Origin: an uncultured Methanosarcinales archaeon
Lineage (GTDB): Archaea > Nanobdellota > Nanobdellia > Woesearchaeales > CAYZNE01
Assembly (NCBI GenBank): GCA_964461035.1
Contig: CAYWRI010000003.1
Coordinates: 3,213 to 67,212 of the forward strand
Reading direction: 5' to 3'
Length of the DNA stretch: 64,000 bases
The notes below the pieces were generated by a model that had not been told where the DNA came from, ran no database searches, and saw nothing but the letters and a program-made list of their open reading frames with translations. Below are positions 2,401-60,957 of the stretch, one piece after another; within the stretch, counting starts at the first letter, position 1, and each line of letters begins with the position of its first letter. The translations under genes and the position numbers were made by a program.

Positions 2401-2540
2401 TTAAATTGAATATTAATCCGGTTATTTCTTAATAAAAGAAGAAGCAACCATCAATATTCTGCAATCTGTAAAAGGAAGTTATTCTAATCCCTTCAGAGAA
2501 TTAACAAATTTTATAAACACATAATTTTATATTACTGGAT

Positions 2541-3493: not shown

Positions 3494-3496
3494 TAT

Positions 3497-3820
3497 TTAT
3501 TTCTTAGAACTTTTTTTAACAGTTTTCTTTTTAGTGGCTTTTCTCTTAGTTTTCTTCTTTTTAACAGGTTTTTTTTGAGTTGGTTTAGCAACAACTTTAT
3601 CTGCTTCTTTAAGAAATTCTTTAACATGTTTTTCAACAAGGTCTTTTATTTTTTTATTTGACTCCACAGAATGTTTAATTATATCTTTTGCAAGTTTTTT
3701 AGATTGAACAGCATCAAGATTGTATTTATCTTTAAGTTCTTTCATAAGAACATCTAAATGCTCTTTACCTATGTAAGCAAGACCAAAACCAAATTGTAAA
3801 GTTTTTTTTAATATATCCAT
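3497..3820 (-). CDS. Hypothetical small protein with a Lys-rich C-terminal tail
   Basis: 107-aa ORF ending 'KKPVKKKKTKRKATKKKTVKKSSKK'; helical N-terminal part. Confidence 0.4.
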   Translation of the reverse strand: MDILKKTLQFGFGLAYIGKEHLDVLMKELKDKYNLDAVQSKKLAKDIIKHSVESNKKIKDLVEKHVKEFLKEADKVVAKPTQKKPVKKKKTKRKATKKKTVKKSSKK

Positions 3821-3863
3821 TTTATTACCTCCCGTAAATATAACATTTATTTATTTTTATTAT

Positions 3864-5525: not shown

Positions 5526-5690
5526 ATTCTTATCTTAACATCGAGTTTTTAAAAATCTTTTCAAATTTTAGTTGTAAACAGATAAAACTTTTATCATAAT
5601 TTATCGAGATATTGTTTCTGCTTCTTTGTTGTCCTTTTTTTTATAGAAAAAATGGCAGAAGCTAAGAAATAGTGTGGTATGGACGCTGAC

Positions 5691-5993
5691 TTACTCCACA
5701 TTGTCAAGAATAATCTTATTCTTAAAACCGCCTCTTTCATTCATTTTTTTAGAACGAATTTTCTCGATTTCTTCTTTTGAAAAACCTTTGAAATCATAAA
5801 TAGCATAAAGAACTTCTTGAATATCAGCTAATTCTTCAGAATTATTATCTTCTAAAAACTCATTAACTTCTTCTAAAAGCTTACTTTTCAATTCATTCCA
5901 ATATTCTTCATCATTAGCGATATGTGTTTTTGATATTTTATTAGACTTTTTTATGATTTCAGGTATTTTATCTCTAACTAATTTTGGTTTCAT
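5691..5993 (-). CDS. MazG/HisE-like all-alpha NTP pyrophosphohydrolase
   Basis: 'LVRDKIPEII ... EELADIQEVLYAI ... ERGGF' matches the small MazG-like NTP-PPase family pattern. Confidence 0.5.
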   Translation of the reverse strand: MKPKLVRDKIPEIIKKSNKISKTHIANDEEYWNELKSKLLEEVNEFLEDNNSEELADIQEVLYAIYDFKGFSKEEIEKIRSKKMNERGGFKNKIILDNVE

Positions 5994-6163
5994 ATTATAA
6001 AAAAAAGCGGTTTTATTTATTAATTTATTGTAAGTAGCTTTGAAAAAATCATAAATAACATATTATTCTACTTCTATTACTAACTCTTTAGAATAAATAT
6101 AAGGTTTTCACAAAACTTTTAAAAGAATCTTATTTCATAAAATGAATTGAGTGGGGTGTAACA

Positions 6164-6925
6164 ATGGGTTTAATTGATCCTTTATTAGATTGGATTTTGT
6201 ATTTTAGTCCCTTTATGGGAATAGTCATAATTTCATTAATTATGTCTTTATTAACTACAATCATATACAAATTTGCTTCTGACCAGAAAAAGATAAAGAC
6301 GATAAAAGAAAGAATGAAAGAACTTCAAAAAAAAATGAAGATCATTCCTAAAGATCAGCCAGAAAAAATGATGGCAATAAATTCCGAGATGATGAAACTA
6401 AATGGTCCTATGATGAAAGAATCATTTAAATCAACATTTTATACAATAATTCCTTCCTTACTAATACTTGCCTGGATGAGTGCAAATCTTGCTTTTTATC
6501 CATTATATACAGAACAACCTTTTACTGTAACAGCAGAATTTAATGAAGGTGTTACGGGAAGTGTTTCAATGAGTGAACTACCTCAGGGATTTAATTATTT
6601 AAATAGTGCTGAACAAAACATTACTGATTCTCAAGCTATTTGGAGACTTCAAGCAGATTCTCCTGGAACTTATACTGCAATAATAGAATTTCAGAATAAA
6701 GACTTTAATCAAGATATACTTATTGTTGAAACACCTGATAGAAAATATTCTAATCCTGAACAAATAGTTAAATCAGGTGGTTTAAATAAAATAACTGTAA
6801 GCAATAACAAAGTAAAACCTTTTGAAGGAGCACCAATAGTGGGTGGATTAAATTGGTTATGGGCTTATATTTTAATAACGGTCATTATGAGTTCTGTTTT
6901 AAGAAAAGTCTTTAAGATATATTAA
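6164..6925 (+). CDS. DUF106/Oxa1-superfamily (YidC/EMC3-like) membrane insertase homologue with a C-terminal extension
   Basis: TM1, then a basic coiled-coil 'KERMKELQKKMK', then TM2/TM3 ('FYTIIPSLLILAWMSANLAFYP'), typical of archaeal DUF106. About 120 aa of extra soluble region and a final TM follow. Confidence 0.5.
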   Translation: MGLIDPLLDWILYFSPFMGIVIISLIMSLLTTIIYKFASDQKKIKTIKERMKELQKKMKIIPKDQPEKMMAINSEMMKLNGPMMKESFKSTFYTIIPSLLILAWMSANLAFYPLYTEQPFTVTAEFNEGVTGSVSMSELPQGFNYLNSAEQNITDSQAIWRLQADSPGTYTAIIEFQNKDFNQDILIVETPDRKYSNPEQIVKSGGLNKITVSNNKVKPFEGAPIVGGLNWLWAYILITVIMSSVLRKVFKIY

Positions 6926-7088
6926 ATATTGCTTTTTTTCTTTTTTATGTATTCTTTTAATTATAAATATCATTTTTAACAAACACCTATTTAATTCTAA
7001 TTAGAATAATATTTTATGAAATTTATAACTTTAAATTACATATAATTTAGAAAAATTATAAAAAAAATTAAAATAAATAAAAAAATAA

Positions 7089-7709
7089 CTACTTGATATT
7101 TTTATTATCTTTTTTCCTATACTTAGGAGGATCATGTCTGTGCTTTTTTCTATAAACTGCAGCAGTACTAGGTCTGTGTTTTTCAGTTCCATGTCCCTTT
7201 GCATCAAGATGTCTTGATTTTCTTCCAGCACTGGTAAGTCCCCTGAAAACTCTTCCTCTTTTCTTAGCAAGATCGCTAAGACCTTTATTTGCAAGTATTT
7301 GAGGATGTTCTCTATCTATTAGAATAACTTCATACCATATGTATAATCCATCTTTAGTAATATAATAGCTATTCAAAACTTCACAATTAGTGTATTTTTT
7401 ATTAGCTCTTTCTTCACAGACTTGTTGATAAGATTTATTCAAGACTAAACTTCTACGATTGTGTTTAGGTCGTCTTCCTCTTTGATCATGAGGTCTTTCA
7501 TGTCCTCCTCTTGCAACTCTCTGTCTTACAATTAAATATCCTTGCTTTGCTTTATAACCAAGTTCTCTTGCTCTATCAATTCTAGTTGGTTTAGCAACTC
7601 TTATGGTTGCAAGTTCTTTTCTGTATCCTAATAATCTTTCTCTTGATAATTTTTTAGCTTCTATTGTGGGATTTTTCCACGCTTCTTTCATATATTTTTG
7701 ATAACCCAT
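7089..7709 (-). CDS. rpl15e: Ribosomal protein eL15 (L15e)
   Basis: 'MGYQKYMKEAW ... RARELGYKAKQGYLIVRQRVARGG ... VLNSYYI ... YEVILID' closely follows the eL15 consensus. Confidence 0.9.
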   Translation of the reverse strand: MGYQKYMKEAWKNPTIEAKKLSRERLLGYRKELATIRVAKPTRIDRARELGYKAKQGYLIVRQRVARGGHERPHDQRGRRPKHNRRSLVLNKSYQQVCEERANKKYTNCEVLNSYYITKDGLYIWYEVILIDREHPQILANKGLSDLAKKRGRVFRGLTSAGRKSRHLDAKGHGTEKHRPSTAAVYRKKHRHDPPKYRKKDNKNIK

Positions 7710-7765
7710 TTTTTTTCACCTTAAGGATTCAAAGTAGCTAATACTTCACATCTCCATCATAATAA

Positions 7766-8191
7766 TTATTTTTTCTCCTCTTCTTTTTTCTTTTCAACTT
7801 CTTTAGTTTCAGAAGTTTCAGCAGGTTTTTCCATTGGTTCAGGTCCATATTTAACTGTTTTCATATTTATTTGAACTGTGTTTTCATTAATAACACTGCC
7901 TGCAACGGTTTTTCTAAGTCTAATTCCTTTTCTTTTTCTTTTCTTTATGCCTACTCCTGAAGCAATAAGAATTTTTTTCCTTTGAGAACCATTAACATCT
8001 TTTCTCATAGGAAAACCACAATAATCAGAACCACCAGTTATTTGAAATTCATAACCTTTGAATCCGACAGCTTCACCTTTTATGATGTCACCAATTTTCT
8101 TTTCAATTAGAACTCTACAATCGTCGTCTTTAAGTTCTTTTTTATAACATTTTTTGGCTTTTGGACAGCCAATATTAAGTTTAAATTCCAT
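7766..8191 (-). CDS. rps6e: Ribosomal protein eS6 (S6e)
   Basis: 'FKLNIGCPKAKKCYKKELKDDD ... GYEFQITGGSDYCGFPMRKDV ... KKILIASGVGIKKRKRKGIRLRKTV' matches eS6. Confidence 0.9.
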   Translation of the reverse strand: MEFKLNIGCPKAKKCYKKELKDDDCRVLIEKKIGDIIKGEAVGFKGYEFQITGGSDYCGFPMRKDVNGSQRKKILIASGVGIKKRKRKGIRLRKTVAGSVINENTVQINMKTVKYGPEPMEKPAETSETKEVEKKKEEEKK

Positions 8192-8194
8192 TAT

Positions 8195-8247
8195 TGTCTC
8201 CTCCGAGCGCCCTTAACTTTGCAAGGACTCAGTCGATATAAATATAT
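8195..8247 (-). promoter_or_regulatory. Putative promoter and RBS of rps6e. On the minus strand a TATA-like 'TTTATAT' lies about 45-55 nt upstream and a 'GGAGGAG' Shine-Dalgarno 4-5 nt before the ATG.
   Basis: Read directly from the sequence: the plus strand carries 'ctcctcc' at 8195-8201 and 'atataaatatat' at 8236-8247. Confidence 0.4.
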
Positions 8248-8694
8248 GCGAACCTCATTTCATTTAAAAATCTTTTTGAATCTTTCTATCTTTTTTTAGA
8301 TTTAATTTAATGTTAAATAAAATAGAATTTTCACTTTTTAATAGAAGTAATCAGAGCTAAAAAATAGAGTGGGATTTTATTTATACTTTTTTTGAATTTC
8401 ATTTTTTCTTAAAAAAGTTGTAAAAATATAAATGTAAAATAGAAATAAAGATTTTTCAGACATCAGTTCTAATTTTGATAACCTTGGTTGTCTTTCTTGT
8501 ATTGTGTAGTTTGATATTTACTTAATCATGAAGTATCGCTAAAGCTTTTCGGATTGAACGCTGCAGACTCTAGATGCATTAATATTTATTTTGATTAACT
8601 CAATTAACTTAAGTAAGAAATATAATTTTGAACAATATAATCTACAATAAAAAATCAGTGAAATTTTTAAATGAATTTATATTCCTAATGAACT

Positions 8695-13050: not shown

Positions 13051-13752
13051 CTATCTAATAAGAACATCGGATATGGGTATGTTTACTTCAGCAGGTTTAA
13101 TTAGAGTTCCATTTTGATTGAATTTTAGAATAGTTACTTCTGTATTATCTTGAAGATAAAACTTTTTATCATTATCATAAAAATTATAACCACAAGTTCC
13201 GTGAAGTGCGTATTCAACAAGATATGCATTAATAGCTCCATGTGCTACACTCATAATAATGCCTGATTTTTGTTTAATATTTTCAATAACATTATTTACT
13301 CGAGTCTCAATATCATTAATTGATTCTGCGTTAAATTCATTTACAAAAGGGGCTCTAGAATCTACTTGCATATATCTTAAATCATCATAAGTTAAATTAT
13401 TAAATTGCGTTAATCCTTTTTGAGTTAGTAAAGCTTGAATGTCATTTTGAGTTTTGTTTTGTAAGCTACCAAAATATATTTCTCTTAAGTTTTTGTCATA
13501 AATTATTTCTTTTTTATATTTTGCAAATTCGGATGCTAAATGCGCAGTGGATTTCGCTCTTTCCAAATCACTGCTATAAATTATAGAAGGATTAATTAAT
13601 TTAATTAATTGAGCTAATAGAGTTTGAGCAAAATCTTCACCTTCTTTGTCTAATTTTCCATCTAATTGACTCGTCCAGATTTCCTGAATATTATCTGTAG
13701 TTTTCCCATGTCTACAAATGTACCATATTAGGTAAGGTTCAATATCATTCAT
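13051..13752 (-). CDS. Histidine phosphatase superfamily protein (phosphoglycerate-mutase-like)
   Basis: 'ICRHGKTTDN' (RHG catalytic motif), 'SDLERAKSTA', and 'MSVAHGAINAYL' (second His). Confidence 0.7.
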   Translation of the reverse strand: MNDIEPYLIWYICRHGKTTDNIQEIWTSQLDGKLDKEGEDFAQTLLAQLIKLINPSIIYSSDLERAKSTAHLASEFAKYKKEIIYDKNLREIYFGSLQNKTQNDIQALLTQKGLTQFNNLTYDDLRYMQVDSRAPFVNEFNAESINDIETRVNNVIENIKQKSGIIMSVAHGAINAYLVEYALHGTCGYNFYDNDKKFYLQDNTEVTILKFNQNGTLIKPAEVNIPISDVLIR

Positions 13753-15536: not shown

Positions 15537-18500
15537 ATGACTGTTTTTAGTGAGTTAGATGAAATTGAGCCAGGTGAACGTAAGCTGGGTGAAAGTGTGC
15601 TGGCTGAAAATGAAATGGGTGATAGATTAGCTTTGTTTGAAAAAGGACTTCAGAAAGCAGGTGCTTATGGATTATATGCTAATCTATTTAGAAATAATTT
15701 ATTTGGTAGAATCGCACATTTATTTTTAGAACCTATTGACTCGGATTCGAACGAAACATTTCCTGAGCAAGTTCTTGAAGACAAAATTAACAAAATATTA
15801 ATTTATGAAAATTCTGATGCTGAATTAGATACAGAAGTGCTAATTAAAAATTATTTATTTGAAGATTTAAGTGAAACAGATATTAAAGTTATAGATCTTC
15901 TTTATAATCTTCAATACAATTTAACTAACTTTTTTTATATACAAAATAGTGAGAATTATGCAAATTTGATGGTGCGATTGGAGGATCGATTTCAACTTCT
16001 CGAATCTATATTAGTTCATATGCCTGATTATTATCAAAATTTGCCTTTAATAAAATTTGAATCAGAATGGAATCATTATTTAGATTTCAACAAGGAAATT
16101 ATTGGAAAAAGACTTCAATTTAAAGAAAAAAGTATTAAATTAATAAGTAAGTCTAGAGAAATTTTAGATCAAAATGATGAAATGCAAAAGTATTTTCAGA
16201 AATTTGACCCGAAAGGAATTGCAAAGACATTAATTGAAAATAATGAAATAAAACAATTAATTAAATGTGCATCTTCTAATTTTAATGAGCAGGATCATTA
16301 TTTTTGGATAAATATTCTTTTTAAAAATATAACTTTTCAAAAAATTATGGAAATCTTACCTTTTAAAGATTATGAAGATCAAATAACTCAACTAGCAAAG
16401 ATTTTAAATCATGGAAATTCAGATAAGATAGAACGAGAAATTCAAATTAAATATCTTTCTTTTTTAGGAAATAAAAATATTGCTGGAAGACATTTATTTC
16501 AGTTGCAAAAAAATATTAGTTCAGATGAACAATTTGGTGTTAATGATAGATTAAGTTCCAATCTTGATACAATTGCAAGTTTTTTTTACAATAATGATAA
16601 CTATTCAAATTTTACTTCAGATTTATCAAATCCTGCTAATTTTTTATTGGTAAATAAACTAAAAGAAGTTTCTTCAGGTCATATTAATGCAATATTGTAT
16701 TATGCAAAACCTGAGAACATATCGCAATTAACTGAACTTTTTATAAATTTAAATGAAGGCATAGCAAATAATTTAAATGAAGTTTATGAAAATTTTAAAG
16801 ACTTATTTCCTCACATATTTGAGCCCTTGAAAGGTTTAGATACAAATCGTAAAGACCACAAGATTATTAATTTGAATTATGGTGAGGAAGGTTTGCAAAA
16901 TCACTTTTTACGAGATAATGATGAACAAGGATATTTTCAATTATTAACCCCTTTGAATTATCCTTTAAGTATAATGAGTTCTAGTAAACATGAACTGATT
17001 CTAGAACAGTTTAAAGTTTCTAATGCTGCAGAATATGTAACAACATTTTCTCAATATTCAAAAGAGATTACAATTATTACCAAAACACCGTTTCTTTTTA
17101 ATTATTTTACTCAAATAAATGAGTCTGAAACAAGCGAACAAATATTAAATTTATTTCCTAAAAAACAGAATAAAGTAGATGTAGATAATTTAACAGAAAT
17201 AATTCAAAGCATAACAACTTATTCAGATCAACAAAATATTCATGAACTTTGTAAATATTTACAAATTAGTTCATACAGGGAACTTGCATCAAAACCTAAA
17301 CAATCAATAATCAATTTTATTGAATTATTTCAAAAATTGGATGATGTTAAATTTAATAATTTGACAATAAATCTAAATCAGGATGAAATATTGAATTTAT
17401 TTGATGTAATGAAAAATCAATTAGATCAAGAAGGAAGATTTATTTCGCACGAATTATCGTATAAATCAATTATAAAAAATCTTGTTGACTCACTTGATTT
17501 AGATTCATATCAAAGAAACCCTGATTTATCACCAATTTTGTTAAAATGTATCACAAGTGAAAACTATAATAAGCTCAATTTAATTGAATTGACTAAATTA
17601 ATTAATTCACAAGAAGATACTTTAGAACTTAATTTGGTTTCAGAATTATTAAATATAACTAAGGGGGTTTTAAGTAATAATTTATATGAGCGACTAAAAA
17701 AATCTAATGATTTTTCTAAAACAAAATTCGAATGGAATAAAATAAGAAATGAATTTCGACAAGGACATTTTAATATTAATGATCCTTTACATGTAGATTT
17801 AGAATATATAACTTTTTGCGATATTGTAACAGCAGATACAAAAACTGAAACAATCTCAAATAATATTCTTTATCAAAGTGTAATTAAATCCGAATCGTTA
17901 GATGGTTTCTTAATAGAAGATGAACTAGAATTAAGAGCACTTGTATATGAGGGAAGCTTATTAAGAAAGTATATTGAACAAGTTCAAATAAGTTCGAAAG
18001 AACAAAATAGAGAATTATGGATTGTTCCTAATCTAAGCTATGGATTAATGCCTGTTCTTGCGATAAGTAATTTTTTAGATGAAAATAATATACCTCTAAT
18101 GAAAGATGTTAAAGTAGGTTCAACCCAATGTCATGATAATCCTTATTATGTTAAAGAAAATTTATTCGGTCACTATACTTCAACAATTATTAACAATCAA
18201 CCAAATATTTTAATAGTTGATGGAACAAACCATTTAGTATCAAGAGAAGAAAAAAATCCTAGATATCCTGATGCACATCAAGGGTATTTGAATTATATGA
18301 TGTTGTTAAATATTTTAATTAATCCTAGTCTTAGACTTGATTGTGAATTTGCAAATGAATATAATTACCTTTTTAATCATCCTGAATTAAAAAATTGCGA
18401 AAAACATCTTCAAATTAAACAAGCTAATTTTATGGAACAGAAATCAAACTACACATTTCATTTTTGGAATACTGCTAATATGAACTTAAGTTTAAGACGA

Positions 18501-18770
18501 GAAAGACAGGAAATTGAAGTAATAGAACCTTATGATGTTTTTCAAGAAAATTCACCTAAATTTATTTTTTGTTGTGTTGGAGTTTTGCATGATCAGCTAG
18601 AAGAAAAATTGAAAGAAGAGTTTGAAAAAAATAATTTAACTCATCAGCCTGCATTTTTTGATGATGATTCTAGAATCACGAGCATGATTCTTGGTTTTAA
18701 TAATTTTGGACTTACGAAAAAGCAAAGATTCGAATCCATACTTCAAAAATTTCAAAATGAATATGAATAA
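15537..18770 (+). CDS. Large hypothetical protein (1077 aa), cytoplasmic, no recognisable domain
   Basis: Long uninterrupted ORF. No signal peptide or TM, and no nucleotide-binding or catalytic motif recognised by eye. Confidence 0.6.
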   Translation: MTVFSELDEIEPGERKLGESVLAENEMGDRLALFEKGLQKAGAYGLYANLFRNNLFGRIAHLFLEPIDSDSNETFPEQVLEDKINKILIYENSDAELDTEVLIKNYLFEDLSETDIKVIDLLYNLQYNLTNFFYIQNSENYANLMVRLEDRFQLLESILVHMPDYYQNLPLIKFESEWNHYLDFNKEIIGKRLQFKEKSIKLISKSREILDQNDEMQKYFQKFDPKGIAKTLIENNEIKQLIKCASSNFNEQDHYFWINILFKNITFQKIMEILPFKDYEDQITQLAKILNHGNSDKIEREIQIKYLSFLGNKNIAGRHLFQLQKNISSDEQFGVNDRLSSNLDTIASFFYNNDNYSNFTSDLSNPANFLLVNKLKEVSSGHINAILYYAKPENISQLTELFINLNEGIANNLNEVYENFKDLFPHIFEPLKGLDTNRKDHKIINLNYGEEGLQNHFLRDNDEQGYFQLLTPLNYPLSIMSSSKHELILEQFKVSNAAEYVTTFSQYSKEITIITKTPFLFNYFTQINESETSEQILNLFPKKQNKVDVDNLTEIIQSITTYSDQQNIHELCKYLQISSYRELASKPKQSIINFIELFQKLDDVKFNNLTINLNQDEILNLFDVMKNQLDQEGRFISHELSYKSIIKNLVDSLDLDSYQRNPDLSPILLKCITSENYNKLNLIELTKLINSQEDTLELNLVSELLNITKGVLSNNLYERLKKSNDFSKTKFEWNKIRNEFRQGHFNINDPLHVDLEYITFCDIVTADTKTETISNNILYQSVIKSESLDGFLIEDELELRALVYEGSLLRKYIEQVQISSKEQNRELWIVPNLSYGLMPVLAISNFLDENNIPLMKDVKVGSTQCHDNPYYVKENLFGHYTSTIINNQPNILIVDGTNHLVSREEKNPRYPDAHQGYLNYMMLLNILINPSLRLDCEFANEYNYLFNHPELKNCEKHLQIKQANFMEQKSNYTFHFWNTANMNLSLRRERQEIEVIEPYDVFQENSPKFIFCCVGVLHDQLEEKLKEEFEKNNLTHQPAFFDDDSRITSMILGFNNFGLTKKQRFESILQKFQNEYE

Positions 18771-19066
18771 AGTCTTCTTAATTAAATTTTTAACAAAACA
18801 GAACCTTTTTAAATACCCTGATATTCGCTATTTCATCGAACATTAATATTTTAGTGATGTTAGAATTATTAATTGGTCATCTTAACGATGTCAATTATGT
18901 AAACAGTACCTGAGAAGAATGCTTTTGTTGTATACATACCATTTATGCTGTATGCAAAATTCTAAAAAAGTGTTTGACTAAAAGGTATATTTCAATATTC
19001 ATCAACATGGATTAATATCAACCAATTATTTATTGGTGTATTTATTAAAATGTGTGTGTATAAAAA

Positions 19067-20041
19067 ATGAAGAAAGTAAATCCGAGACATGGAAGTATGC
19101 AGGTTTGGCCAAGGAAAAGAGCCAAAAGAGAACAACCTAGAATTAGATCTAGACCTGTTGTTAAAGAAGCTGTTCCTATTGGGTTTGCAGGATATAAAGT
19201 CGGCATGACTCATGTTCAAGCAATTGATGCATACAAAAATTCTATTACAAAAGGTCAAGAGATTAGTGTTCCTGTAACAATTATTGAATGTCCTCCTTTA
19301 AGAATACATTCTTTAAGATGTTATGTTTCAAAAGGTTACGGGTTTGAAATTGCCAATGAAATCTTTTTCAAAGGCACCAAATATACCTCAAGACGCGTTA
19401 CCTTCAAAGTATCTTCTCCTGATAAACTTGATAATCTAAATCTTTCTGATTATCATCATTTTTCAATAACTCTTTCTACTCAACCTAATTTAACTGGTTT
19501 AAAAAAAACTCCTGAAATATTTGAGTTACCAGTTGGTGGAAGTAATGAGGATGTAATTAACTTTGTTAAGGAAAATAAAGAGAAAGACATTAAAGTTTCT
19601 GAAATATTAAAAGAAGGAGACATTGTTGATTTTCATGCTATCACTAAAGGAAAAGGTTATCAGGGTTCAGTAAAAAGATTTGGTATTGGATTAAAAAGTC
19701 ATAAATCAGAAAAAGGACAAAGAGCTCCAGGTTCAATTTCTGGAGGATGGGTTGCACAAGGTCATATGATGTGGAGAGTTGCTTTTCCCGGTCAAATGGG
19801 GTATCATCAAAGAACTCAATATAATTCACAAGTATTCAAAATGTCAGATAAACCTGAAGAGATTAATCCTTCAGGAGATTTTGTTAGATATGGAAAAGTA
19901 AAATCAGATTATATTTTAGTTGCTGGTTCTGTTCCAGGACCTAAAAAAAGATTTGTTGTATTTACAAAAGCAATTAGGCCAACAAAAATCATAAGACCTG
20001 TTCCAACAATTTCAGAAATAAGTTTAGCTTCACAACAATAA
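19067..20041 (+). CDS. rpl3: Ribosomal protein uL3
   Basis: 'PRHGSMQVWPRKRA', 'GYKVGMTHV', 'TKGKGYQG' are uL3 signatures. First gene of the archaeal L3 operon. Confidence 0.92.
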   Translation: MKKVNPRHGSMQVWPRKRAKREQPRIRSRPVVKEAVPIGFAGYKVGMTHVQAIDAYKNSITKGQEISVPVTIIECPPLRIHSLRCYVSKGYGFEIANEIFFKGTKYTSRRVTFKVSSPDKLDNLNLSDYHHFSITLSTQPNLTGLKKTPEIFELPVGGSNEDVINFVKENKEKDIKVSEILKEGDIVDFHAITKGKGYQGSVKRFGIGLKSHKSEKGQRAPGSISGGWVAQGHMMWRVAFPGQMGYHQRTQYNSQVFKMSDKPEEINPSGDFVRYGKVKSDYILVAGSVPGPKKRFVVFTKAIRPTKIIRPVPTISEISLASQQ

Positions 20042-38233: not shown

Positions 38234-41053
38234 TTAAAGAAAAGATAAATCCTTAGAAGAAAGATTAACATCAGGGTTAGCATTTTCAATGTTTAAAGAT
38301 TCTGGATGACAAATTTGATAAAATCTAAATGATTTTAGCTCGTTTTTCCAATAAAATAATAAATTTTCTTCAGATTTATTTAGATTTGATTTATTATTAC
38401 TTAAATTGTTATATTTTCCTTGTAATTCATTTATGGTATTGTTAAGACCTTTAGTGGTTTTTTCTAAGTTAATTTTAGCTTGATTTTCTTCAAAGTTTAC
38501 TTTTTCTAATTCAGATCCTTCTAAACCGTCTTTAATAGTTCCGTAAAATCTATAAGATTCATACTTTGCATCAACATATTCTTTAAATATCTCTGCGAAT
38601 TTAACAAACTTAGGTATTAACTCTGAATACTCGAAAAAAATAGGAACATAAGGTTCTGAGCTATTAAAGTTATTAATAAGCTCATAAATATTTCTTAGAT
38701 TTCCATCTTTAAATATGAATTTTTCTGGATGAACAGATAAATCATGCAAATCTTTTATATCTATATATTTATCTTCTATTTTTGTTCTTGAATCTGACTC
38801 GAGAAATCTTCCAGCTATATAATATTCTTCACAAAAATTACATTTTTGCAGTGAGTCATAAATATCATCAATGTAATATTTATCATTTTGAACTAAAAAA
38901 GACAATATTTTTGGAAGACCATCATCTTGTAAAGTTTCAACTATTCTCTCCAAGTTATCACTAAGAAATCTTCTGTCTGCAAGTTTTTGTTTTACTATTT
39001 CTCTTCCCTCTTCATCTAATGATACTTCTTCATAAAAAGATAACCCGACGCCACGAATATAATCAGATAAAGTTTTTACAATAGCTAAAACATTTGAATA
39101 AATTAATTCCTGTTCATCTTTAATTTGAAATCCGAAATGATTGTCAATTTCAAAGGGCTCCAAGATAATTTTATTTCTCAATCCAAGATGAGCTATCCAA
39201 TTAATTGCATCTGCCTTTCTAATTGTTTCAATTACTTTATTAAAACTATATAACGTTTGATTAGGCATATGTAATGCTGCATGAGCCATAAACTCTTCAA
39301 GATATTTTTTTTTAAATTCTTCAGGAGATATATTTGTAAGAAGGGTATATGAATTTATAGGCACAACATCTTTTTCTACATCATTGATTGCATCTCTTAT
39401 TTTCTTCTCTTGAGAATCTGGTGCTAATTCTATTACTTTAAATTCTCTTCCTAAAGTAGAAATAAGCGCTCCATCTTCTGGTTTAGATTCTTGAGGTAAC
39501 AAATTAAGCCTATAAACATGACTTATTTCAAAATTATTTTTAGAAGAGTAATCATTATCAGAAATAAAAATACAATTAATTCCCTTGAATAATGTCTTAG
39601 ATTCCGAAAGAATTAATTCTTTTCTTTGATCAGAGTTATCATTTGATGGAGTTGTAGGAAGATATATGATTTCATCGGGAGAAAAAGATTTCTCTAAATT
39701 ATTTAATGGTAACATGGTTTGAGGATTATTATTCATTTTTAAATAATCTGAATCTATTTTTATGTGTGAACCTCCATTCAGATTATTTACAATTTCATTA
39801 TAAGTCAAATATTTGTCTTTTAAAGGGGGTTGAATTTGTTCTTTTGCAATAAGCTTATTTTCTATCATTGCATTTAATATTTCTGGAAGTCTTGCAAAAT
39901 CTTTTTCTTCACTAAATCTATTGAAATACTTTCCTTCTTTTATTGACCAAAAAATTGACATAAATTTTTTATCAGCAACATTGGGTTCATAATAATCAAA
40001 CAATCGTTCATGATCCACAGCAGTCGCTTTCCATCTTTCCAATATTTTCTTTGTATACCAAGACATAAACTTTGAAACTTCATCCTCTTGTTTTATGTTA
40101 TCATAATGAAATTTCAAAGTATTGTAGACAACATCCGTTATTTCTTTAGGTATATCATGATAATAATTAAAAAAAGTTCTTCTTTTAATAAACCCTGCTT
40201 CTTTGATTATTTTAGGATAAAGTAATTCTAATGCGCTTGAAAAAGATAAAGATTCTTCTTTATATCTAATAAGAAAAGAAGAAAGATACTTTGCAGTGTG
40301 AGAATTAAGAACAATTCTTGAATTAATCCATTTCGAGCGAGTATTACCTATTTCACGATAATTCAAAAGACTATACTCTGCTAATTTTATTTCTTCTGGA
40401 ATAAGATCCATTCCTTCGCGAAAATCAGACATATCTAAATTTAAATTAATCAGAGAATTTGCACAACGCTTGGCTTGATTAACTAAAACATATTTTTCAA
40501 ATATTTTTTTAGATTCTTCAAAACCAGAATTAGGTTCAACTTCAGACATATTATCAAATTTGTTAATTATGGTCATGACTTCTTTTAAATTATCAATCAT
40601 ATTTTTTAATTTCCTTGTTTTATAATTAATAGCAAACATTATTGCTAAATCTTCTCGTTTGTTAAATTTTCTATGATATCTTTCTTCTAATGAATCTTTT
40701 GAATTAGACCACAACTTATTAATTTCATCAATATTATTAAATTCAAGTTCTAAAAGCTTTTCTTCTTCTTTCCACCTTTCACGAAATTTTGATTTAAACT
40801 GAGATTCTTTATAAGAACTATAAATTCCGCTTCCCCAAGGCCAATTACATCGGTATTTAGCAGTTAATTCAACTAAAGCTTTCTTCGGAACAATTTGAGA
40901 AGTAGAATCTATTACTTTATCAGATTCTTCAATAATAACAGTACATAATTTATTTATTTCATTTTCTTCAAATAATTGAGTTAAAGTTTCTTCAAGACTA
41001 GGTTTGGGCATTTTTTTTCGAAAATCAACAAAGTTTAAATAAATTTCTATCAA
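38234..41053 (-). CDS. Large hypothetical protein (939 aa), cytoplasmic, no recognisable domain
   Basis: Long ORF; no signal peptide or TM and no nucleotide-binding motif recognised. The ending is coiled-coil-like and Asn/Lys-rich. Confidence 0.55.
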   Translation of the reverse strand: MIEIYLNFVDFRKKMPKPSLEETLTQLFEENEINKLCTVIIEESDKVIDSTSQIVPKKALVELTAKYRCNWPWGSGIYSSYKESQFKSKFRERWKEEEKLLELEFNNIDEINKLWSNSKDSLEERYHRKFNKREDLAIMFAINYKTRKLKNMIDNLKEVMTIINKFDNMSEVEPNSGFEESKKIFEKYVLVNQAKRCANSLINLNLDMSDFREGMDLIPEEIKLAEYSLLNYREIGNTRSKWINSRIVLNSHTAKYLSSFLIRYKEESLSFSSALELLYPKIIKEAGFIKRRTFFNYYHDIPKEITDVVYNTLKFHYDNIKQEDEVSKFMSWYTKKILERWKATAVDHERLFDYYEPNVADKKFMSIFWSIKEGKYFNRFSEEKDFARLPEILNAMIENKLIAKEQIQPPLKDKYLTYNEIVNNLNGGSHIKIDSDYLKMNNNPQTMLPLNNLEKSFSPDEIIYLPTTPSNDNSDQRKELILSESKTLFKGINCIFISDNDYSSKNNFEISHVYRLNLLPQESKPEDGALISTLGREFKVIELAPDSQEKKIRDAINDVEKDVVPINSYTLLTNISPEEFKKKYLEEFMAHAALHMPNQTLYSFNKVIETIRKADAINWIAHLGLRNKIILEPFEIDNHFGFQIKDEQELIYSNVLAIVKTLSDYIRGVGLSFYEEVSLDEEGREIVKQKLADRRFLSDNLERIVETLQDDGLPKILSFLVQNDKYYIDDIYDSLQKCNFCEEYYIAGRFLESDSRTKIEDKYIDIKDLHDLSVHPEKFIFKDGNLRNIYELINNFNSSEPYVPIFFEYSELIPKFVKFAEIFKEYVDAKYESYRFYGTIKDGLEGSELEKVNFEENQAKINLEKTTKGLNNTINELQGKYNNLSNNKSNLNKSEENLLFYWKNELKSFRFYQICHPESLNIENANPDVNLSSKDLSFL

Positions 41054-41205: not shown

Positions 41206-41868
41206 GTGATCATTAAATCAATTGTTAAAGCAGTTATTTTTGATATGGATGGTGTTCTAGTAGAAACCATGAAATATCACATGCTAAGTTGGGAAAAAGC
41301 ACTTCACACATTTAATATTTTCCCAACAGATGAAGAATTATATTTAATCGAAGGAATGTCATATAAAGAAACTATTGATGTTTTATCTAAAAAATATTCT
41401 GTTGAATTAACACAGCATGAAAAAGAGCAAATTTACTCGACAAAAAAGAAAACATTATTAGAAATTTGTAAGTTTATTATTTATCCTTATGTTATTGAAA
41501 TACTTCAATTTTTAAAGCAAAAAAATGTGAAAATGGCTTTAGTTTCAGGTTCAAACAAAGAATTCGTTTCAACAGTAATTGAAAAGAACTTTAATAATTT
41601 TTTCAATGTAATAATTACGGGCAGTGATGTAAAAAATGGCAAACCCTCTCCCGAGCCCTATTTAGTTTCATTAAAAAAATTGCAATTAAAACCTAATGAA
41701 GTTTTAGTAGTTGAAAATGCACCTTTAGGTATCGAAAGTGCAAAAACTGCACAACTTAAGACTTTTGCTTTAACAACAACCTTGGACAAGAAACATCTTT
41801 TGAAAGCAGATAAAATCTTCTCCAATCATCTTGAGTTGCTTAAATACATAAAAACCTTAGTGATTTAA
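41206..41868 (+). CDS. HAD-superfamily hydrolase (beta-phosphoglucomutase/phosphatase-like subfamily IA)
   Basis: Motif I 'VIFDMDGVLVET', motif II 'LVSGSN', motif III 'KNGKPSPEPY', motif IV 'VVENAPLGIESAKTA'. Confidence 0.8.
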   Translation: MIIKSIVKAVIFDMDGVLVETMKYHMLSWEKALHTFNIFPTDEELYLIEGMSYKETIDVLSKKYSVELTQHEKEQIYSTKKKTLLEICKFIIYPYVIEILQFLKQKNVKMALVSGSNKEFVSTVIEKNFNNFFNVIITGSDVKNGKPSPEPYLVSLKKLQLKPNEVLVVENAPLGIESAKTAQLKTFALTTTLDKKHLLKADKIFSNHLELLKYIKTLVI

Positions 41869-45796: not shown

Positions 45797-46618
45797 ATGT
45801 TTCAATTACCTGTTTTAGAATTATATGCATCAGCAGAAGAAGATGATTCTGCACTTAAATTCACACAGGGTTTAGTAACTAAAGTTTTTGAATCTAAGGG
45901 TTTATTTCAAACAAATTCTACTCAAGAAAGATTAGAGTCTTTAGATATTACACATATTAATTCAGATACTGCTACTAAAATAGATAAAATAAATCCAAAT
46001 ATGAATAAGCTTCTTATAATTGCAGGTTCAAATATGCGTCATCAATCTACTTATCATTTTGTAAAATATTTTGCAGGACATTTAGATGATTTGGTTTATG
46101 TTCATTTTGATCTTCATCCTGATGCACATCCAAGCACTTTTCCTGCTGAATTAGCATTGGAATTAGATATTTCAAATTATTCAAGAAGAGATTTAGGGCT
46201 TGGAACTTTTGTTTATCCAATACTTGGTCTTCCTACAGTAAAAACGGCGGTAATGTTTGGATATAGAGATATTCCTGAAGAAAATAATTATAATCCTCAC
46301 AGGATATATTCTAAAGTTTTCGGTCCAGCTGAAATAGTTACAAAAGATGAACTTAACAAATATTTTAAAGGAAAAAACATTTATGTATCAATTGATGGTG
46401 ATGTATTGAAAGATTGGAAAGGATTTATGTGTGGAAATGGGAAAATGGAAACTGAAACTCTTATTGAAAATATAAATTTAATTGCAGAAGCTGGAAATCT
46501 TGTTGGTGTTGATTTAACAGGATTTGCCAGAACCCAATCTGAAACAATATCTATGCCTAAACAACTTATTTTACTGGGTGAATTAAGATTAGAATTATAT
46601 AAAATAATAAGTAAGTAA
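45797..46618 (+). CDS. Arginase/agmatinase/formiminoglutamase-fold (ureohydrolase) family protein, divergent
   Basis: 'HFDLHPDAH' (DxHxD metal-ligand motif) and 'VSIDGDVLKD' (SxDxD motif). The first GGDHS-type motif is divergent ('AGSNMRHQS'). Confidence 0.5.
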   Translation: MFQLPVLELYASAEEDDSALKFTQGLVTKVFESKGLFQTNSTQERLESLDITHINSDTATKIDKINPNMNKLLIIAGSNMRHQSTYHFVKYFAGHLDDLVYVHFDLHPDAHPSTFPAELALELDISNYSRRDLGLGTFVYPILGLPTVKTAVMFGYRDIPEENNYNPHRIYSKVFGPAEIVTKDELNKYFKGKNIYVSIDGDVLKDWKGFMCGNGKMETETLIENINLIAEAGNLVGVDLTGFARTQSETISMPKQLILLGELRLELYKIISK

Positions 46619-46761: not shown

Positions 46762-48606
46762 ATGTGTGGAATATTCGGATATATTGGTTCTGAAGAAGCA
46801 GTTCCAATATTACTTAAAGGTCTTAAAAGATTAGAATACAGAGGTTATGATTCTGCAGGCATTGCATTAATAGATAAAAACTTAGTAATTACTAAAGTCA
46901 AAGGAAACCTAAATCTATTAGGTGAAAAACTTAAACTTGAAACTCATAAATCAAATATTGGAATTGCTCATACGAGATGGGCAACACATGGTGTTCCAAA
47001 TGAAATTAATGCACATCCTCATGTAAATGAATTAAAAACTATTTCAATAGTTCATAATGGAATAATTGAAAATTATAAAACCATAAAACAATATTTACAA
47101 AAAAAAGGTTATAACTTTTCAACAGATACAGATAGTGAAGTTTTGGTTCATTTAATAGATTATAATTATAAATTAAATTCAAACAATTTAGTTAATGCAG
47201 TGAAAAAATCCTTATTAATGATTGAAGGAACTTATGGTCTTGCGGTTTTATCAATTTATGAACCAGAAAAAATAATAGTTGCAAAAAAAGGAAGTCCTGT
47301 TATAATCGGGAAATCTGATAAAAATGAGTTCTTTATTGCAAGTGACGTGAGTGCAGTTATTGAATATACTAAAAACATAACTTTTCTTAAAGATGGAGAA
47401 ATTGCGGTTTTGGACAAAAAAGAAATAAAAATATTTAATCTTAATAATGAAGATTGTAAAGATCCAAAATATGAACAAGTAGAAATGGAACTTGAAGAAA
47501 TTGAAAAAAAAGGATTTGAGCATTTTATGTTAAAAGAAATTTATGAACAAGATAAAACTCTATTAAATTCACTTAGAGGAAGAATAAATACTGAAACAGG
47601 AAATGTTACATTAGGTGGATTAACTGATAAACTAGAAACACTAAAACATGCAAAAAGAATTATTCTTATTGCATGTGGAACATCATGGCATTCTGCTTTA
47701 ATTGGAGAATACTTATTAGAATCAATAGCGGGAATACCAACAGAAGTTGAATATGCAAGCGAATTCAGATATAGAAATCCGATAATTGAAGAAGGAACAG
47801 TTGTTTTTGTTATATCTCAATCTGGAGAAACTGCTGACACTTTAGCAGCATTACGTGAATCAAAAAATCAAAGTGCAACAGTCTTTGGGATTTGTAATGT
47901 TGTGGGTTCAAGCATAGCAAGACAAACTGATGCGGGAGTTTATATTCATGCAGGTCCTGAAATAGGTGTTGCATCCACAAAAGCATTTACATCACAAGTA
48001 ATTGTTCTTGTATTAATAGCAATTCTTCTTGGAAGACAAAGAAACTTATCTGAAGAAGAAGGGAAAAAATTAGTTAAAGAATTAAAAAATATTCCAAAAA
48101 AAATTGAAAGTGCTTTAAAATATTTAGATGAAAAATCAATTAAAAGAATTACTAAATTATTTGCAAATACAAATAATGCACTTTTTTTAGGACGAGGAAT
48201 TAATTATCCTGTTGCGTTAGAAGGTGCATTAAAAGTAAAAGAAATATCTTATATTCATGCTGAAGGTTATCCTGCTGCAGAAATGAAGCACGGTCCTATT
48301 GCACTAATAGCTGAAAACATGCCCTGTATTGTTATTGCAACAGAAGATTCAATGTATAATAAATTACTTTCAAATATTGAAGAAATAAAAGCAAGAAAAG
48401 GAAAAATTATTGTTATTGCAACAGAAGGTGATGAAAGAATAAAAGAACTTGCAACTGAAGTCATATATGTTCCTAAAACACTTTCTCTTTTATCACCTAT
48501 AATAAATGTTATTCCTTTGCAACTACTTGCATATTATCTTGCAAAAGAAAGAGGATGTAGTATTGACAAACCAAGAAATCTTGCAAAAAGTGTTACAGTA
48601 GAATAA
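46762..48606 (+). CDS. glmS: Glutamine--fructose-6-phosphate aminotransferase (isomerising), GlmS
   Basis: N-terminal nucleophile 'MCGIFGYIG', 'AHTRWATHG', two SIS domains, and a C-terminal '...KSVTVE' typical of GlmS. Confidence 0.92.
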   Translation: MCGIFGYIGSEEAVPILLKGLKRLEYRGYDSAGIALIDKNLVITKVKGNLNLLGEKLKLETHKSNIGIAHTRWATHGVPNEINAHPHVNELKTISIVHNGIIENYKTIKQYLQKKGYNFSTDTDSEVLVHLIDYNYKLNSNNLVNAVKKSLLMIEGTYGLAVLSIYEPEKIIVAKKGSPVIIGKSDKNEFFIASDVSAVIEYTKNITFLKDGEIAVLDKKEIKIFNLNNEDCKDPKYEQVEMELEEIEKKGFEHFMLKEIYEQDKTLLNSLRGRINTETGNVTLGGLTDKLETLKHAKRIILIACGTSWHSALIGEYLLESIAGIPTEVEYASEFRYRNPIIEEGTVVFVISQSGETADTLAALRESKNQSATVFGICNVVGSSIARQTDAGVYIHAGPEIGVASTKAFTSQVIVLVLIAILLGRQRNLSEEEGKKLVKELKNIPKKIESALKYLDEKSIKRITKLFANTNNALFLGRGINYPVALEGALKVKEISYIHAEGYPAAEMKHGPIALIAENMPCIVIATEDSMYNKLLSNIEEIKARKGKIIVIATEGDERIKELATEVIYVPKTLSLLSPIINVIPLQLLAYYLAKERGCSIDKPRNLAKSVTVE

Positions 48607-48612
48607 AAGAAA

Positions 48613-49053
48613 ATGGAATACAAAATAGTAGAACTAACAAAAGAAATTATGGCAAAAGATTTTCAAGGTTTTTGTGAAACACTTAATAATCTTAGATTGG
48701 TGGGAGAAATTACATTAGAAAAAGCAAAAACAACTCTTGACAAAATTAACTTACAAGACTCACACATTTTTGTTGCAATAGATGATAATTTTAAGATATT
48801 AGCAACAACAACAATCATGATAGAACAAAAATTTATTAGAAACAATGCATTAGCAGGTCATATTGAAGATGTTTCTACAAGAAAAGGTTTTGAAAAACAA
48901 GGACTTGCTACAATAGTTATAAATTCCGCAATAAATTATGCTAAATCTCGAGGTTGTTACAAAATAATTCTTGATTGCGAGAATGAATTAAAACTTTTTT
49001 ATTCTAAATTCGGTTTTAAAGAAGAAGGACTTTTTATGGCTCTAAGATTTTGA
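48613..49053 (+). CDS. GNAT acetyltransferase most similar to eukaryote-type glucosamine-6-phosphate N-acetyltransferase (GNA1)
   Basis: 'AGHIEDVSTRKGFEKQGLATIVINSAINYAKSRGCYKIILDCENELKLFYSKFGF' parallels GNA1 'GHIEDIAV ... GQGLG ... GCYKIILDC ... FYEKCGF'. It lies directly downstream of glmS. Confidence 0.6.
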   Translation: MEYKIVELTKEIMAKDFQGFCETLNNLRLVGEITLEKAKTTLDKINLQDSHIFVAIDDNFKILATTTIMIEQKFIRNNALAGHIEDVSTRKGFEKQGLATIVINSAINYAKSRGCYKIILDCENELKLFYSKFGFKEEGLFMALRF

Positions 49054-49113: not shown

Positions 49114-49728
49114 ATGAAAGCAATAACTTTATTTAGTCATGGAATAGATAGTCCTGTAGCTTCAAAAATATGTAATGATAAAGGGATAGATTTAATTGGT
49201 TTACATTTTTGTTCTAAAGCAATAAATAAAACTTACTTAGATAACCTAAAACAATTAGCTCAACTAAGTGGAATAAAAAAATTATATCTTGCAGATCAAT
49301 CACATTATCATAAAGAATATAAAAAAATATGCAATACGAGATTACAATGTGTTTTTTGCAAAAGAATGATGCTTAGAATTGCAGAAAAACTTGCAGAAAA
49401 AGAAAATTGTAAATTTATTGTTACGGGAGATAATTTAAGTCAAGTAGCAACTCAAACAATAGAGAATATGAGAGTTGTTAGTAGCGTAATTAAAAATAAA
49501 GACATAATTATTTTAAGACCAATTCTAACAAATGAAAAAAACGAAACAATAGATATTGCGAGAACAATAGGAACTTATGAATTTAATCTTAAATTTAAAG
49601 AAGGATGTATCTTCTTACCTAAATCTCCTGTTACAAGAACTAAAATATTGGTAATAGAAAAAGAAGAAAACAAACTCGATATAAATAATTTAGTCGAACA
49701 AACTATTAATGAACTTAAATTAATCTAA
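49114..49728 (+). CDS. ThiI-like PP-loop ATP pyrophosphatase domain protein (no THUMP domain)
   Basis: 'LFSHGIDSPVA' (PP-loop SGGxDSPVA with G replaced by H) and 'VTGDNLSQVATQTIENM' (ThiI 'TGESLGQVASQTLENL'). Confidence 0.55.
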   Translation: MKAITLFSHGIDSPVASKICNDKGIDLIGLHFCSKAINKTYLDNLKQLAQLSGIKKLYLADQSHYHKEYKKICNTRLQCVFCKRMMLRIAEKLAEKENCKFIVTGDNLSQVATQTIENMRVVSSVIKNKDIIILRPILTNEKNETIDIARTIGTYEFNLKFKEGCIFLPKSPVTRTKILVIEKEENKLDINNLVEQTINELKLI

Positions 49729-56520: not shown

Positions 56521-57375
56521 ATGAAAATATTTCTTGACAGTGCAAATTTAGATGAAATTAAAGAAGCTTTTTCCTGGGGAATAATTGATGGTATAACAAC
56601 AAATCCTTCTTTAATGAAAAAAGCAATTAACAGCTTGAATTCAAAAGGTTCTAATGTTAATATGTTAAATTATATTGAAGATATTCTTAAAATTGCAGGC
56701 AGTAATCATTCTGTTAGCTTAGAAGTAATAAGTCTTACTGAAAAAGAAATGTATTCTGAAGCAAAAATATTATATGATCAATTTAATAAAATTGTAGACA
56801 ATGTTTCAATTAAAATTCCAATATGCACTGCTAAAGATGTAAGTTCAATTAATTTTGATGCATTGAAAGTTATAAAAAAATTAGCAGATGAAAACATTTC
56901 TGTAAATGCAACTTTGATTTTTAATCCAGAACAGGCTCTCTTAGCCGCAAAAGCAGGAGCAAAATTTGTAAGTCCTTTCTTAGGTAGAATCGATGATTTA
57001 TTACGAATTGAAAAACTAGATCTGAAAAAAGTATCAGCTCCTGTCACGGATAAAGAATTTGCAGGACAGGATTATTATCCTGCAGAAGGAGTATTTATAG
57101 AAAAAGGAATGGCTGAAGATAATGGAATCATAAGTGGTATTGATTTATTAAGTCAACTAATTACAATATTTGACAATTATGAATTTGATTGTCAGATAAT
57201 CGCTGCATCTGTTAGAAACTCAAGACAAGCAAGAGAATCAGCTCTTGAAGGTGCAGATATAGCAACACTTCCTTTTACTGTAATAAAAGACATGCTTTGG
57301 CATAAAAAATCTGCAGAAGGAATAATTGCTTTTGAAAACGATGTTGTTCCAGAATACAAAAAACTGTTTGACTAA
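56521..57375 (+). CDS. Transaldolase / fructose-6-phosphate-aldolase family protein with a roughly 40-aa insertion
   Basis: 'MKIFLDSANLDEIKEA ... GITTNPSL', Schiff-base Lys in 'VSIKIPIC', and 'FVSPFLGRIDD'. Confidence 0.75.
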   Translation: MKIFLDSANLDEIKEAFSWGIIDGITTNPSLMKKAINSLNSKGSNVNMLNYIEDILKIAGSNHSVSLEVISLTEKEMYSEAKILYDQFNKIVDNVSIKIPICTAKDVSSINFDALKVIKKLADENISVNATLIFNPEQALLAAKAGAKFVSPFLGRIDDLLRIEKLDLKKVSAPVTDKEFAGQDYYPAEGVFIEKGMAEDNGIISGIDLLSQLITIFDNYEFDCQIIAASVRNSRQARESALEGADIATLPFTVIKDMLWHKKSAEGIIAFENDVVPEYKKLFD

Positions 57376-60435: not shown

Positions 60436-60957
60436 TTAATATTTATGTTGTTCTTCAAGTTTTATTGTTTGTAAATATCTTTTAAGATAAGCATCATCTT
60501 TTTCTTTATCGGAATAGAATTTTGTTTCTAACCAACTTTCAATAATATTTATACATTCTTCTATTGTTATTAAATCTGCACTTAATCCAATTACATTAGA
60601 ATTATTATGTTTCCGACTTGAAATAGCATCTTCTGCTGTTAAACATCTTGAAGCAATAATTCTACCATACTTTGATGCAGGTATAATAATTCCTATTCCA
60701 GAACCACATATTCCTATTCCGACACTATTTAAATAATTATTAGAAACATTACGCCCAATTTTATCAGATATTTCAGGATAATCACATCTTTCTTCAGAAT
60801 CAGTTCCTACATCAATTATTCCATAATTTTTTTCTTTTAGAAATTTTATAAGTTCTTTTTTATGTGCATAACCTCTATGATCAGAACCAATCACAATTAT
60901 TTTACCTTTATGAGATTCAATAGGGATTTCATAATTTTCAATTATTATTGAGTTCAT
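60436..60957 (-). CDS. rpiB: Ribose-5-phosphate isomerase B (RpiB/LacAB family)
   Basis: 'KIIVIGSDHRGYAHKKELIKFLKEKNYGIIDVGT', 'GIGICGSGIGIIIPASKYGRIIASRC', 'SRKHNNSNVIGL'. Confidence 0.8.
   Translation of the reverse strand: MNSIIIENYEIPIESHKGKIIVIGSDHRGYAHKKELIKFLKEKNYGIIDVGTDSEERCDYPEISDKIGRNVSNNYLNSVGIGICGSGIGIIIPASKYGRIIASRCLTAEDAISSRKHNNSNVIGLSADLITIEECINIIESWLETKFYSDKEKDDAYLKRYLQTIKLEEQHKY

Follow-up and report, generated by a model that had tools for sequence, protein, structure and literature searches.

The 64-kb stretch of archaeal DNA analysed here (contig CAYWRI010000003.1; "the window" means this whole stretch) carries, just behind the glmS gene, a gene for a GNAT-type protein of 146 amino acids (aa). 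This protein is quite probably a glucosamine-6-phosphate N-acetyltransferase of the GNA1 family, predicted to act on the glucosamine 6-phosphate (GlcN6P) made by GlmS within a hybrid route to UDP-N-acetylglucosamine (UDP-GlcNAc). The GNA1-type identity, already proposed in the initial annotation, is upheld because sequence (including matches to solved structures in the PDB), predicted fold, active-site residues and recurrent gene linkage agree. The route is regarded as hybrid because the partner enzymes found in related genomes are of prokaryotic type, i.e. a GlmM-type mutase and a GlmU without the acetyltransferase domain. The window itself displays only the first two steps, and the interest of the locus lies mainly in this broader pattern.

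The gene pair lies on the forward strand. Positions 46762-48606 encode a protein of 614 aa which is certainly GlmS, the glutamine--fructose-6-phosphate transaminase (isomerizing) that makes GlcN6P, judging by its match to TIGR01135 of NCBIfam (795.7 bits against a cut-off of 418) and by the Pfam domains GATase_6/7 and two SIS domains. Direct reading of the sequence places the glmS stop codon TAA at 48604-48606, followed by a spacer of 6 nucleotides (aagaaa, 48607-48612) and by the ATG of the GNAT gene (48613-49053); the position directly downstream of GlmS given in the initial annotation is therefore correct. Such a short gap points to a single transcript, and the two genes are almost certainly co-transcribed. 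The Rfam scan of the 64-kb window returned no glmS ribozyme, nor any other RNA family at the gathering threshold.

The GNAT contains all four of the GNA1-like motif blocks that had first drawn attention to it: GHIEDV (residues 82-87), GFEKQGLA (92-99), GCYKIILDC (114-122) and FYSKFGF (129-135). When the single sequence was searched against the PDB, the nine top matches were all GNA1 proteins (E 1.7e-23 to 4.5e-11), namely the GlcN6P N-acetyltransferases of Arabidopsis (1.7e-23), Aspergillus, C. elegans, yeast, Trypanosoma and human, and the next GNAT followed at 2.9e-5. A family profile built from 24 homologues, with which GNA1 can be set against other GNATs as the initial annotation had proposed, gave a wider separation in the same direction, with GNA1 structures at 2e-35 to 1.8e-30 and the next GNAT at 1.9e-15. 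The gap between GNA1 and the other GNATs thus amounts to at least 6 orders of magnitude with the single sequence and to 15 with the profile, and the resemblance of the predicted protein to GNA1 is far above chance.

The domain libraries, on the other hand, speak on their face against the assignment. Pfam reported only the generic families Acetyltransf_1/7/10, NCBIfam listed sat4, PaiA, AAC(6') and RimI, and neither returned a GNA1-specific family for the window GNAT. These results would favour a generic GNAT, RimI-like or an aminoglycoside acetyltransferase, lying beside glmS by chance. However, the NCBIfam scores were 17-23 bits against cut-offs of 86-380, and the absence of a GNA1 family from the output of both libraries does not count against membership. 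The many orders of magnitude that separate GNA1 structures from other GNATs in the sequence searches, the fold comparison and the GNA1-specific residues described below, and a linkage to hexosamine genes that recurs across phyla, all argue against a chance neighbour, which is effectively refuted and has only a very slight probability left. A generic GNAT without GNA1-specific residues had been named from the beginning as the outcome that would overturn the proposal; those residues are present.

The fold prediction agrees with this assignment. The AlphaFold2 (AF2) monomer model of the GNAT has a predicted local distance difference test score (pLDDT) of 96.8 and a predicted template modelling score (pTM) of 0.90, and when it was compared with the PDB by Foldseek all of the 25 top matches were GNA1 structures, the best being the Arabidopsis enzyme AtGNA1 (3t90; query-normalised template modelling score, TMq, of 0.88; root mean square deviation 1.6 A). 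GNA1 is a homodimer in which exchange of the beta6 strand places the acceptor site at the interface; in the monomer model a C-terminal strand (residues 141-145) is present as a candidate for this exchange.

The active site is best described by reference to the C. elegans enzyme, CeGNA1, in which the 6-phosphate of the substrate is held by K136 and R164, E104 and D105 contact the hydroxyls of the sugar, the backbone of D105/V106 binds the acetyl group, the carbonyl of E140 touches the acetamido nitrogen, Y149 serves as catalytic tyrosine, C141 is conserved family-wide and M161 is a conserved active-site residue (PMC3413214). Their counterparts in the yeast enzyme ScGNA1 include D99/I100 in the beta4 bulge and Y143 as the catalytic or leaving-group tyrosine (residue roles from PMC3413214 and PMC4964394). 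A MAFFT alignment with 119 prokaryotic homologues was used to map these positions. The 6-phosphate ligands correspond to K117 and R145 of the window protein, the sugar ligands E104/D105/V106 to E85/D86/V87 within the GHIEDV block, and E140, C141, Y149 and M161 to D121, C122, Y130 and M142. All the mapped residues are identical to those of CeGNA1 except D121, a position that is also Asp in yeast, plant and fungal GNA1 and that contacts the substrate through its backbone. Conservation among the homologues is nearly complete: E85 and Y130 are found in 119 of the 119, K117 in 118, D86 in 117, C122 in 116 and V87 in 115, and the active-site positions apart from R145 are conserved in 111-119 of them. 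At every sequence-level and structure-level test applied, the window protein behaved as a GNA1.

The position of the C-terminal arginine deserves separate mention. In the window protein (MALRF, residues 142-146) and in the homologues P0002 and P0032 it stands three residues after the methionine (M+3, M-x-x-R), as it does in the yeast and C. elegans GNA1, and in 106 of the 119 prokaryotic homologues it follows the methionine directly (M+1, MRL..); an R or K is found within 4 residues of the Met in 113 of the 119. To judge from these alignments, the two spacings might reflect a different placement of the acceptor phosphate. Read as an altered phosphate pocket, the M+1 arginine of most archaeal homologues would suit a pathway in the bacterial order, in which the GNAT acetylates the glucosamine 1-phosphate (GlcN-1-P) delivered by a GlmM-type mutase and replaces the left-handed beta-helix (LbH) domain lost from GlmU. 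This alternative is considered unlikely, as the window protein retains all of the GlcN6P contacts, both 6-phosphate ligands and the eukaryotic M-x-x-R spacing, and a 1-phosphate lying beside the C2 amine would presumably require another pocket.

Related to the distribution of the gene, a search of 5.8 billion proteins returned 146 homologues at E <=1e-5, and a scan of GTDB, with one genome per species, confirmed at least 389 relatives. At least 389 species representatives thus carry the GNA1-like gene, spread over the DPANN archaea, the ammonia-oxidising Thaumarchaeota and the bacteria of the candidate phyla radiation (CPR), so that the idea of a peculiarity of one lineage, with which the initial annotation had presented it, has to be given up. 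Taxonomy and gene context were taken from the best 80 of these genome loci, of which 55 are thaumarchaeal, 16 DPANN and 9 CPR. Among these 80, the DPANN carriers are Woesearchaeota, Nanoarchaeota and Aenigmatarchaeota, the carriers in Nitrososphaeria belong to Nitrosopumilus, Nitrosopelagicus, Nitrosotenuis, Nitrosarchaeum, Nitrosocosmicus and Nitrososphaera, and the CPR carriers are Komeilibacteria, Buchananbacteria, SR1, Saccharibacteria and Peribacteria. Cultured strains of Nitrosopumilus and Nitrososphaera possess homologues. Apart from one weak match, a scan of metagenomes for close relatives yielded nothing but the contig itself. Many of the homologues are named "glucosamine-phosphate N-acetyltransferase" in JGI and only "GNAT family N-acetyltransferase" at NCBI; the window gene is a further, well-preserved member of a family that JGI already annotates. 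No papers on GNA1 in archaea or in CPR bacteria were found in full text, which is weak evidence given the thin coverage of subscription journals.

In a neighbour-joining (NJ) tree, a rough and merely indicative one with a short alignment, a midpoint root and four eukaryotic GNA1s, these four formed a clade apart from all the prokaryotic sequences, and the window protein clustered with the copies from Woesearchaeota and Nanoarchaeota. The separate position of the eukaryotic sequences indicates that the window GNAT belongs to a prokaryotic branch of GNA1. The same topology led to the provisional rejection of a recent transfer from a eukaryote. The label "eukaryote-type" used in the initial annotation is accordingly misleading.

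The gene neighbourhood of the relatives (loci are designated by L numbers) supports a role in hexosamine metabolism. The closest known relative is the sister lineage L087, present in two independent samples, whose GNAT is 69% identical and whose gene order, glmS C-terminus (84-90% identical), 66 nucleotides, GNAT, an open reading frame (ORF) of 114 aa and ThiI (72% identity), reproduces the layout of the window. Within the 80 genome loci, glmS lies no more than 6 kb from the GNAT gene in 10, all of them DPANN or CPR and none among the 55 thaumarchaeal ones; in L019, L020, L021, L035, L036 and L068 it immediately precedes the GNAT gene in the same orientation. A short nucleoside triphosphate (NTP) transferase adjoins the GNAT in 44 of the 80, in several gene orders (39 of 55 thaumarchaeal, 4 of 16 DPANN and 1 of 9 CPR loci), so that in Thaumarchaeota the GNAT is linked to this enzyme and not to glmS. 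A complete four-gene cluster, glmS-GNAT-NTP-transferase-mutase, is found in L020, L021 and L068, and L025 has the permuted order glmS-mutase-NTP-transferase-GNAT. Since the thaumarchaeal loci are close relatives of each other, they do not count as independent cases; what gives the context evidence its weight is its recurrence in three distant groups with differing gene orders.

The partner enzymes in these clusters are not those of eukaryotes. The GNAT-adjacent NTP-transferases, with a median of 233 aa and a maximum of 251 aa, match only NTP_transferase in Pfam. In NCBIfam, the DPANN enzyme of L068 matches archaeal GlmU at profile positions 1-213 of 393 only, the CPR enzyme of L036 matches bacterial GlmU at positions 2-238 of 452 only (E 5.8e-64), and the match of the thaumarchaeal enzyme is less specific. 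The GlmU-like gene next to the GNAT, of 228-251 aa, therefore corresponds to the nucleotidyltransferase half only, and a GlmU that by its sequence is devoid of the acetyltransferase is in these clusters the neighbour of an acetyltransferase of GNA1 type. The linked mutase reaches 449.7 bits with Arch_GlmM, for which the NCBIfam cut-off is 439. The visible partners in relatives are thus an Arch_GlmM-type mutase and the N-terminal half of GlmU, and not AGM1 or UAP1.

In the pathway proposed, GlmS would convert fructose 6-phosphate and glutamine into GlcN6P, which the co-transcribed GNAT would acetylate at once with acetyl-CoA to N-acetylglucosamine 6-phosphate (GlcNAc-6-P). By analogy with the related genomes, a phosphohexomutase of GlmM/PGM type would then produce GlcNAc-1-P, and a stand-alone GlmU-like nucleotidyltransferase without an acetyltransferase domain would form UDP-GlcNAc for surface glycans; the GNAT would in this way substitute for the missing LbH acetyltransferase domain of GlmU. 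The mutase and the uridylyltransferase are inferred, on the same analogy, to be encoded elsewhere in this genome, and the substrate GlcN6P and the order of steps are deduced as well. The eukaryotic route suggested in the initial annotation survives here in part: the reaction order of eukaryotes is still the most likely one, and the partners of the relatives are GlmM-type and truncated GlmU enzymes instead of AGM1 and UAP1.

This combination contains a biochemical conflict. Enzymes of the GlmM family convert GlcN6P into GlcN-1-P. GlmM and GNA1 would therefore both use GlcN6P and neither product would lead to GlcNAc-1-P, so that one of the two enzymes must be non-canonical: either the mutase takes GlcNAc-6-P or the GNAT takes GlcN-1-P. 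If the enzyme is a GNA1, a mutase that accepts GlcNAc-6-P is the likelier solution, favoured because the GNAT retains every GlcN6P contact and because phosphohexomutases of the GlmM superfamily are often promiscuous. No papers on prokaryotic mutases that accept GlcNAc-6-P were found in the literature searched.

Several further observations weigh against the proposed pathway and have to be set beside the evidence for it. The linked mutase of the relatives belongs to the GlmM equivalog family, which would fit the bacterial order of steps. Its score above the archaeal phosphoglucosamine mutase cut-off and the pairing with a nucleotidyltransferase that is the N-terminal half of GlmU speak for acetylation of GlcN-1-P, but in the window the GNAT follows 6 nucleotides after the gene of the GlcN6P producer and there is no mutase in the stretch. 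Neither Pfam on 46 ORFs nor tblastn with the NTP-transferase and the mutase of the relatives detected any mutase, nucleotidyltransferase or LbH protein in the 64 kb; nor were an AGM1-type mutase, a UAP1/AGX-type pyrophosphorylase or a bifunctional GlmU with a C-terminal LbH GlcN-1-P acetyltransferase domain seen there. These negatives, including that for a bifunctional GlmU, the second outcome named in the initial annotation as contrary to the proposal, apply to the window and not to the remainder of the genome, the source contig being 67,424 bp in length. The GNAT of the close relatives L084 and L089 has no pathway neighbours, incomplete pathways are common in DPANN, and no assays of any enzyme of the prokaryotic GNA1 branch were found in the literature searched.

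Some of these observations are also those expected from salvage, detoxification or a dead end, in which free glucosamine or surplus GlcN6P would be acetylated, GlcNAc-6-P would pass to a host or serve as a signal, and the synthesis of UDP-GlcNAc would not be completed. The lack of a mutase and of a uridylyltransferase within 64 kb, the resemblance of the window to a reduced genome of DPANN type and the several relatives whose GNAT has no pathway neighbours are all compatible with it. Nevertheless, the conserved phosphate ligands speak against free glucosamine as substrate, the adjoining glmS, an enzyme of de novo synthesis, speaks against salvage alone, and the recurrent linkage with nucleotidyltransferase and mutase in other lineages indicates biosynthesis. 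This explanation is therefore judged improbable, somewhat more so than the bacterial order, and acetylation of GlcN6P for UDP-GlcNAc synthesis is preferred. As a general proposition, there is about an even chance that DPANN, ammonia-oxidising Thaumarchaeota and CPR share a widespread third design made up of GlmS, a GNA1-type GNAT that acetylates GlcN6P, a mutase of GlmM type that accepts GlcNAc-6-P and the uridylyltransferase half of GlmU.

Other loci show further arrangements around the gene. On the metagenome contig L090, which measures 62 kb, the region 1935-8441 has a GNA1-like gene (46% identical) that begins 4 nucleotides after ATP-citrate-lyase-like genes (Citrate_bind, Ligase_CoA/Citrate_synt), and 4 kb upstream lies glmS in the same orientation; this arrangement may tie the supply of acetyl-CoA to the acetylation of GlcN6P. 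In two CPR loci a TrmB-family sugar-specific regulator is encoded directly 5' of glmS-GNAT (L035, 3344-4078; L036, 3143-3883); its cluster, c41, occurs also in L009, and L035 has two GT2 glycosyltransferases further upstream. As regards GlmS, the window protein is 53-55% identical to the two CPR enzymes of L035 and L036 (599-612 aa) and 40-41% identical to those of the DPANN four-gene clusters in L020, L021 and L068 (590 aa), and these identities suggest that glmS may have been exchanged between CPR and DPANN. The 145-kb contig L084, which carries P0003, the closest of the homologues located on long contigs, has two neighbouring TIR-domain genes (ThsB_TIR / TIR_2; 18517-19310) about 8 kb from the GNA1-like gene, possibly a defence locus.

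The window has a G+C content of about 27%, and its marker genes (ribosomal proteins L15e and S6e, eRF1, aIF2-alpha, PAC2, FtsZ and a ribosomal protein cluster) identify it as archaeal; no tRNA genes were found in the 64 kb. Beyond an AT-rich spacer, 60 nucleotides 3' of the GNAT gene, begins the gene of a ThiI-domain PP-loop ATPase of 204 aa (49114-49728, forward strand; Pfam ThiI 3.5e-45). The protein consists of the PP-loop domain alone, with no THUMP or rhodanese domain detected, and is probably outside the UDP-GlcNAc pathway; none of the 80 genome loci has a ThiI neighbour. L001 and L002, two further samples, carry a GNAT gene identical to that of the window, and there the ThiI gene was called shorter, with 145 and 167 aa. 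Immediately 5' of glmS there is an ORF of 273 aa (45797-46618, forward strand) with a weak match to the arginase/agmatinase family (Pfam 4.5e-6; NCBIfam agmatinase 20 bits against a cut-off of 174), of which no counterpart was found among the related loci. Genes related to sugar phosphates are dispersed through the window: a HAD_2 hydrolase, of a family that includes beta-phosphoglucomutases and sugar phosphatases (41206-41868, forward strand), a transaldolase / Fru-6-P aldolase (56521-57375, forward strand), RpiB (60436-60957, reverse strand) and a histidine-phosphatase (PGAM-like) protein (13051-13752, reverse strand). Two long ORFs, of 1077 aa (15537-18770, forward strand) and 939 aa (38234-41053, reverse strand), have no Pfam match at E <=1e-4.

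The difference between prokaryotes and eukaryotes in the acetylation step has been cited to justify GlmU as an antibiotic target. In the picture given in reviews, prokaryotes acetylate GlcN-1-P by means of GlmU and eukaryotes acetylate GlcN6P by means of GNA1 (PMC10087520). The present data suggest that this usual split is too simple for UDP-GlcNAc synthesis and that another solution is used by many CPR bacteria and many archaea, among them the ammonia oxidisers that abound worldwide, because at least 389 carriers are known and the gene is recurrently linked to glmS and to a GlmU devoid of the acetyltransferase. Metabolic reconstructions are affected, since such genomes would be scored as lacking the GlmU acetyltransferase and the NCBI name goes no further than the GNAT family. 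If the hybrid design is true, an acetylation step and a reaction order supposed to be specific to eukaryotes exist in prokaryotes, and the GNA1 family possesses a deep branch that is prokaryotic and possibly archaeal, a point of consequence for the question of how eukaryotes came by their hexosamine pathway.

Among the known systems, the closest is the eukaryotic GNA1 / GNPNAT1 (EC 2.3.1.4), represented by the structures from Arabidopsis (3T90), yeast (1I12/1I1D), A. fumigatus (2VEZ), C. elegans (4AG7) and human (2HUZ). The window protein shares with it the GNAT sub-family (E down to 2e-35 with the family profile), the fold (TMq 0.83-0.88), the sugar, 6-phosphate and catalytic residues and the C-terminal M-x-x-R, and with the plant enzyme also the minimal single-domain size (146 aa against 149). 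However, over the residues that can be aligned its identity to the solved GNA1 structures is 24-37%, and its gene lies on the prokaryotic branch of the rough tree and forms an operon-like pair with a glmS of prokaryotic type. The eukaryotic pathway as a whole, GFAT-GNA1-AGM1-UAP1, differs in that no AGM1 or UAP1 was seen here and the relatives have partners of GlmM and GlmU-N type. Giant viruses offer another mixed, non-cellular-eukaryote pathway to UDP-GlcNAc: that of Mimivirus comprises GFAT, the GNA1-like L316 and a UAP, combining an acetyltransferase of GNA1 type with a prokaryote-like pyrophosphorylase, and it is viral, associated with eukaryotes and not known to include a glmS operon.

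Compared with bifunctional GlmU (TIGR01173 / TIGR03992), the predicted net chemistry is the same, the N-acetylation of a glucosamine phosphate, whereas the fold (GNAT instead of left-handed beta-helix) and the predicted substrate (GlcN6P instead of GlcN-1-P) are different; the GNAT of the relatives adjoins a GlmU homologue that lacks exactly the acetyltransferase domain. Little sequence similarity exists between GNA1 and the C-terminal domain of GlmU (PMC10087520). The homologues held in JGI/IMG, from Nitrososphaeria and from DPANN and CPR metagenome bins, are of the same family as the window protein, with 39-69% identity and the same motifs, and most of them differ from it in having the C-terminal arginine at M+1 instead of M+3.

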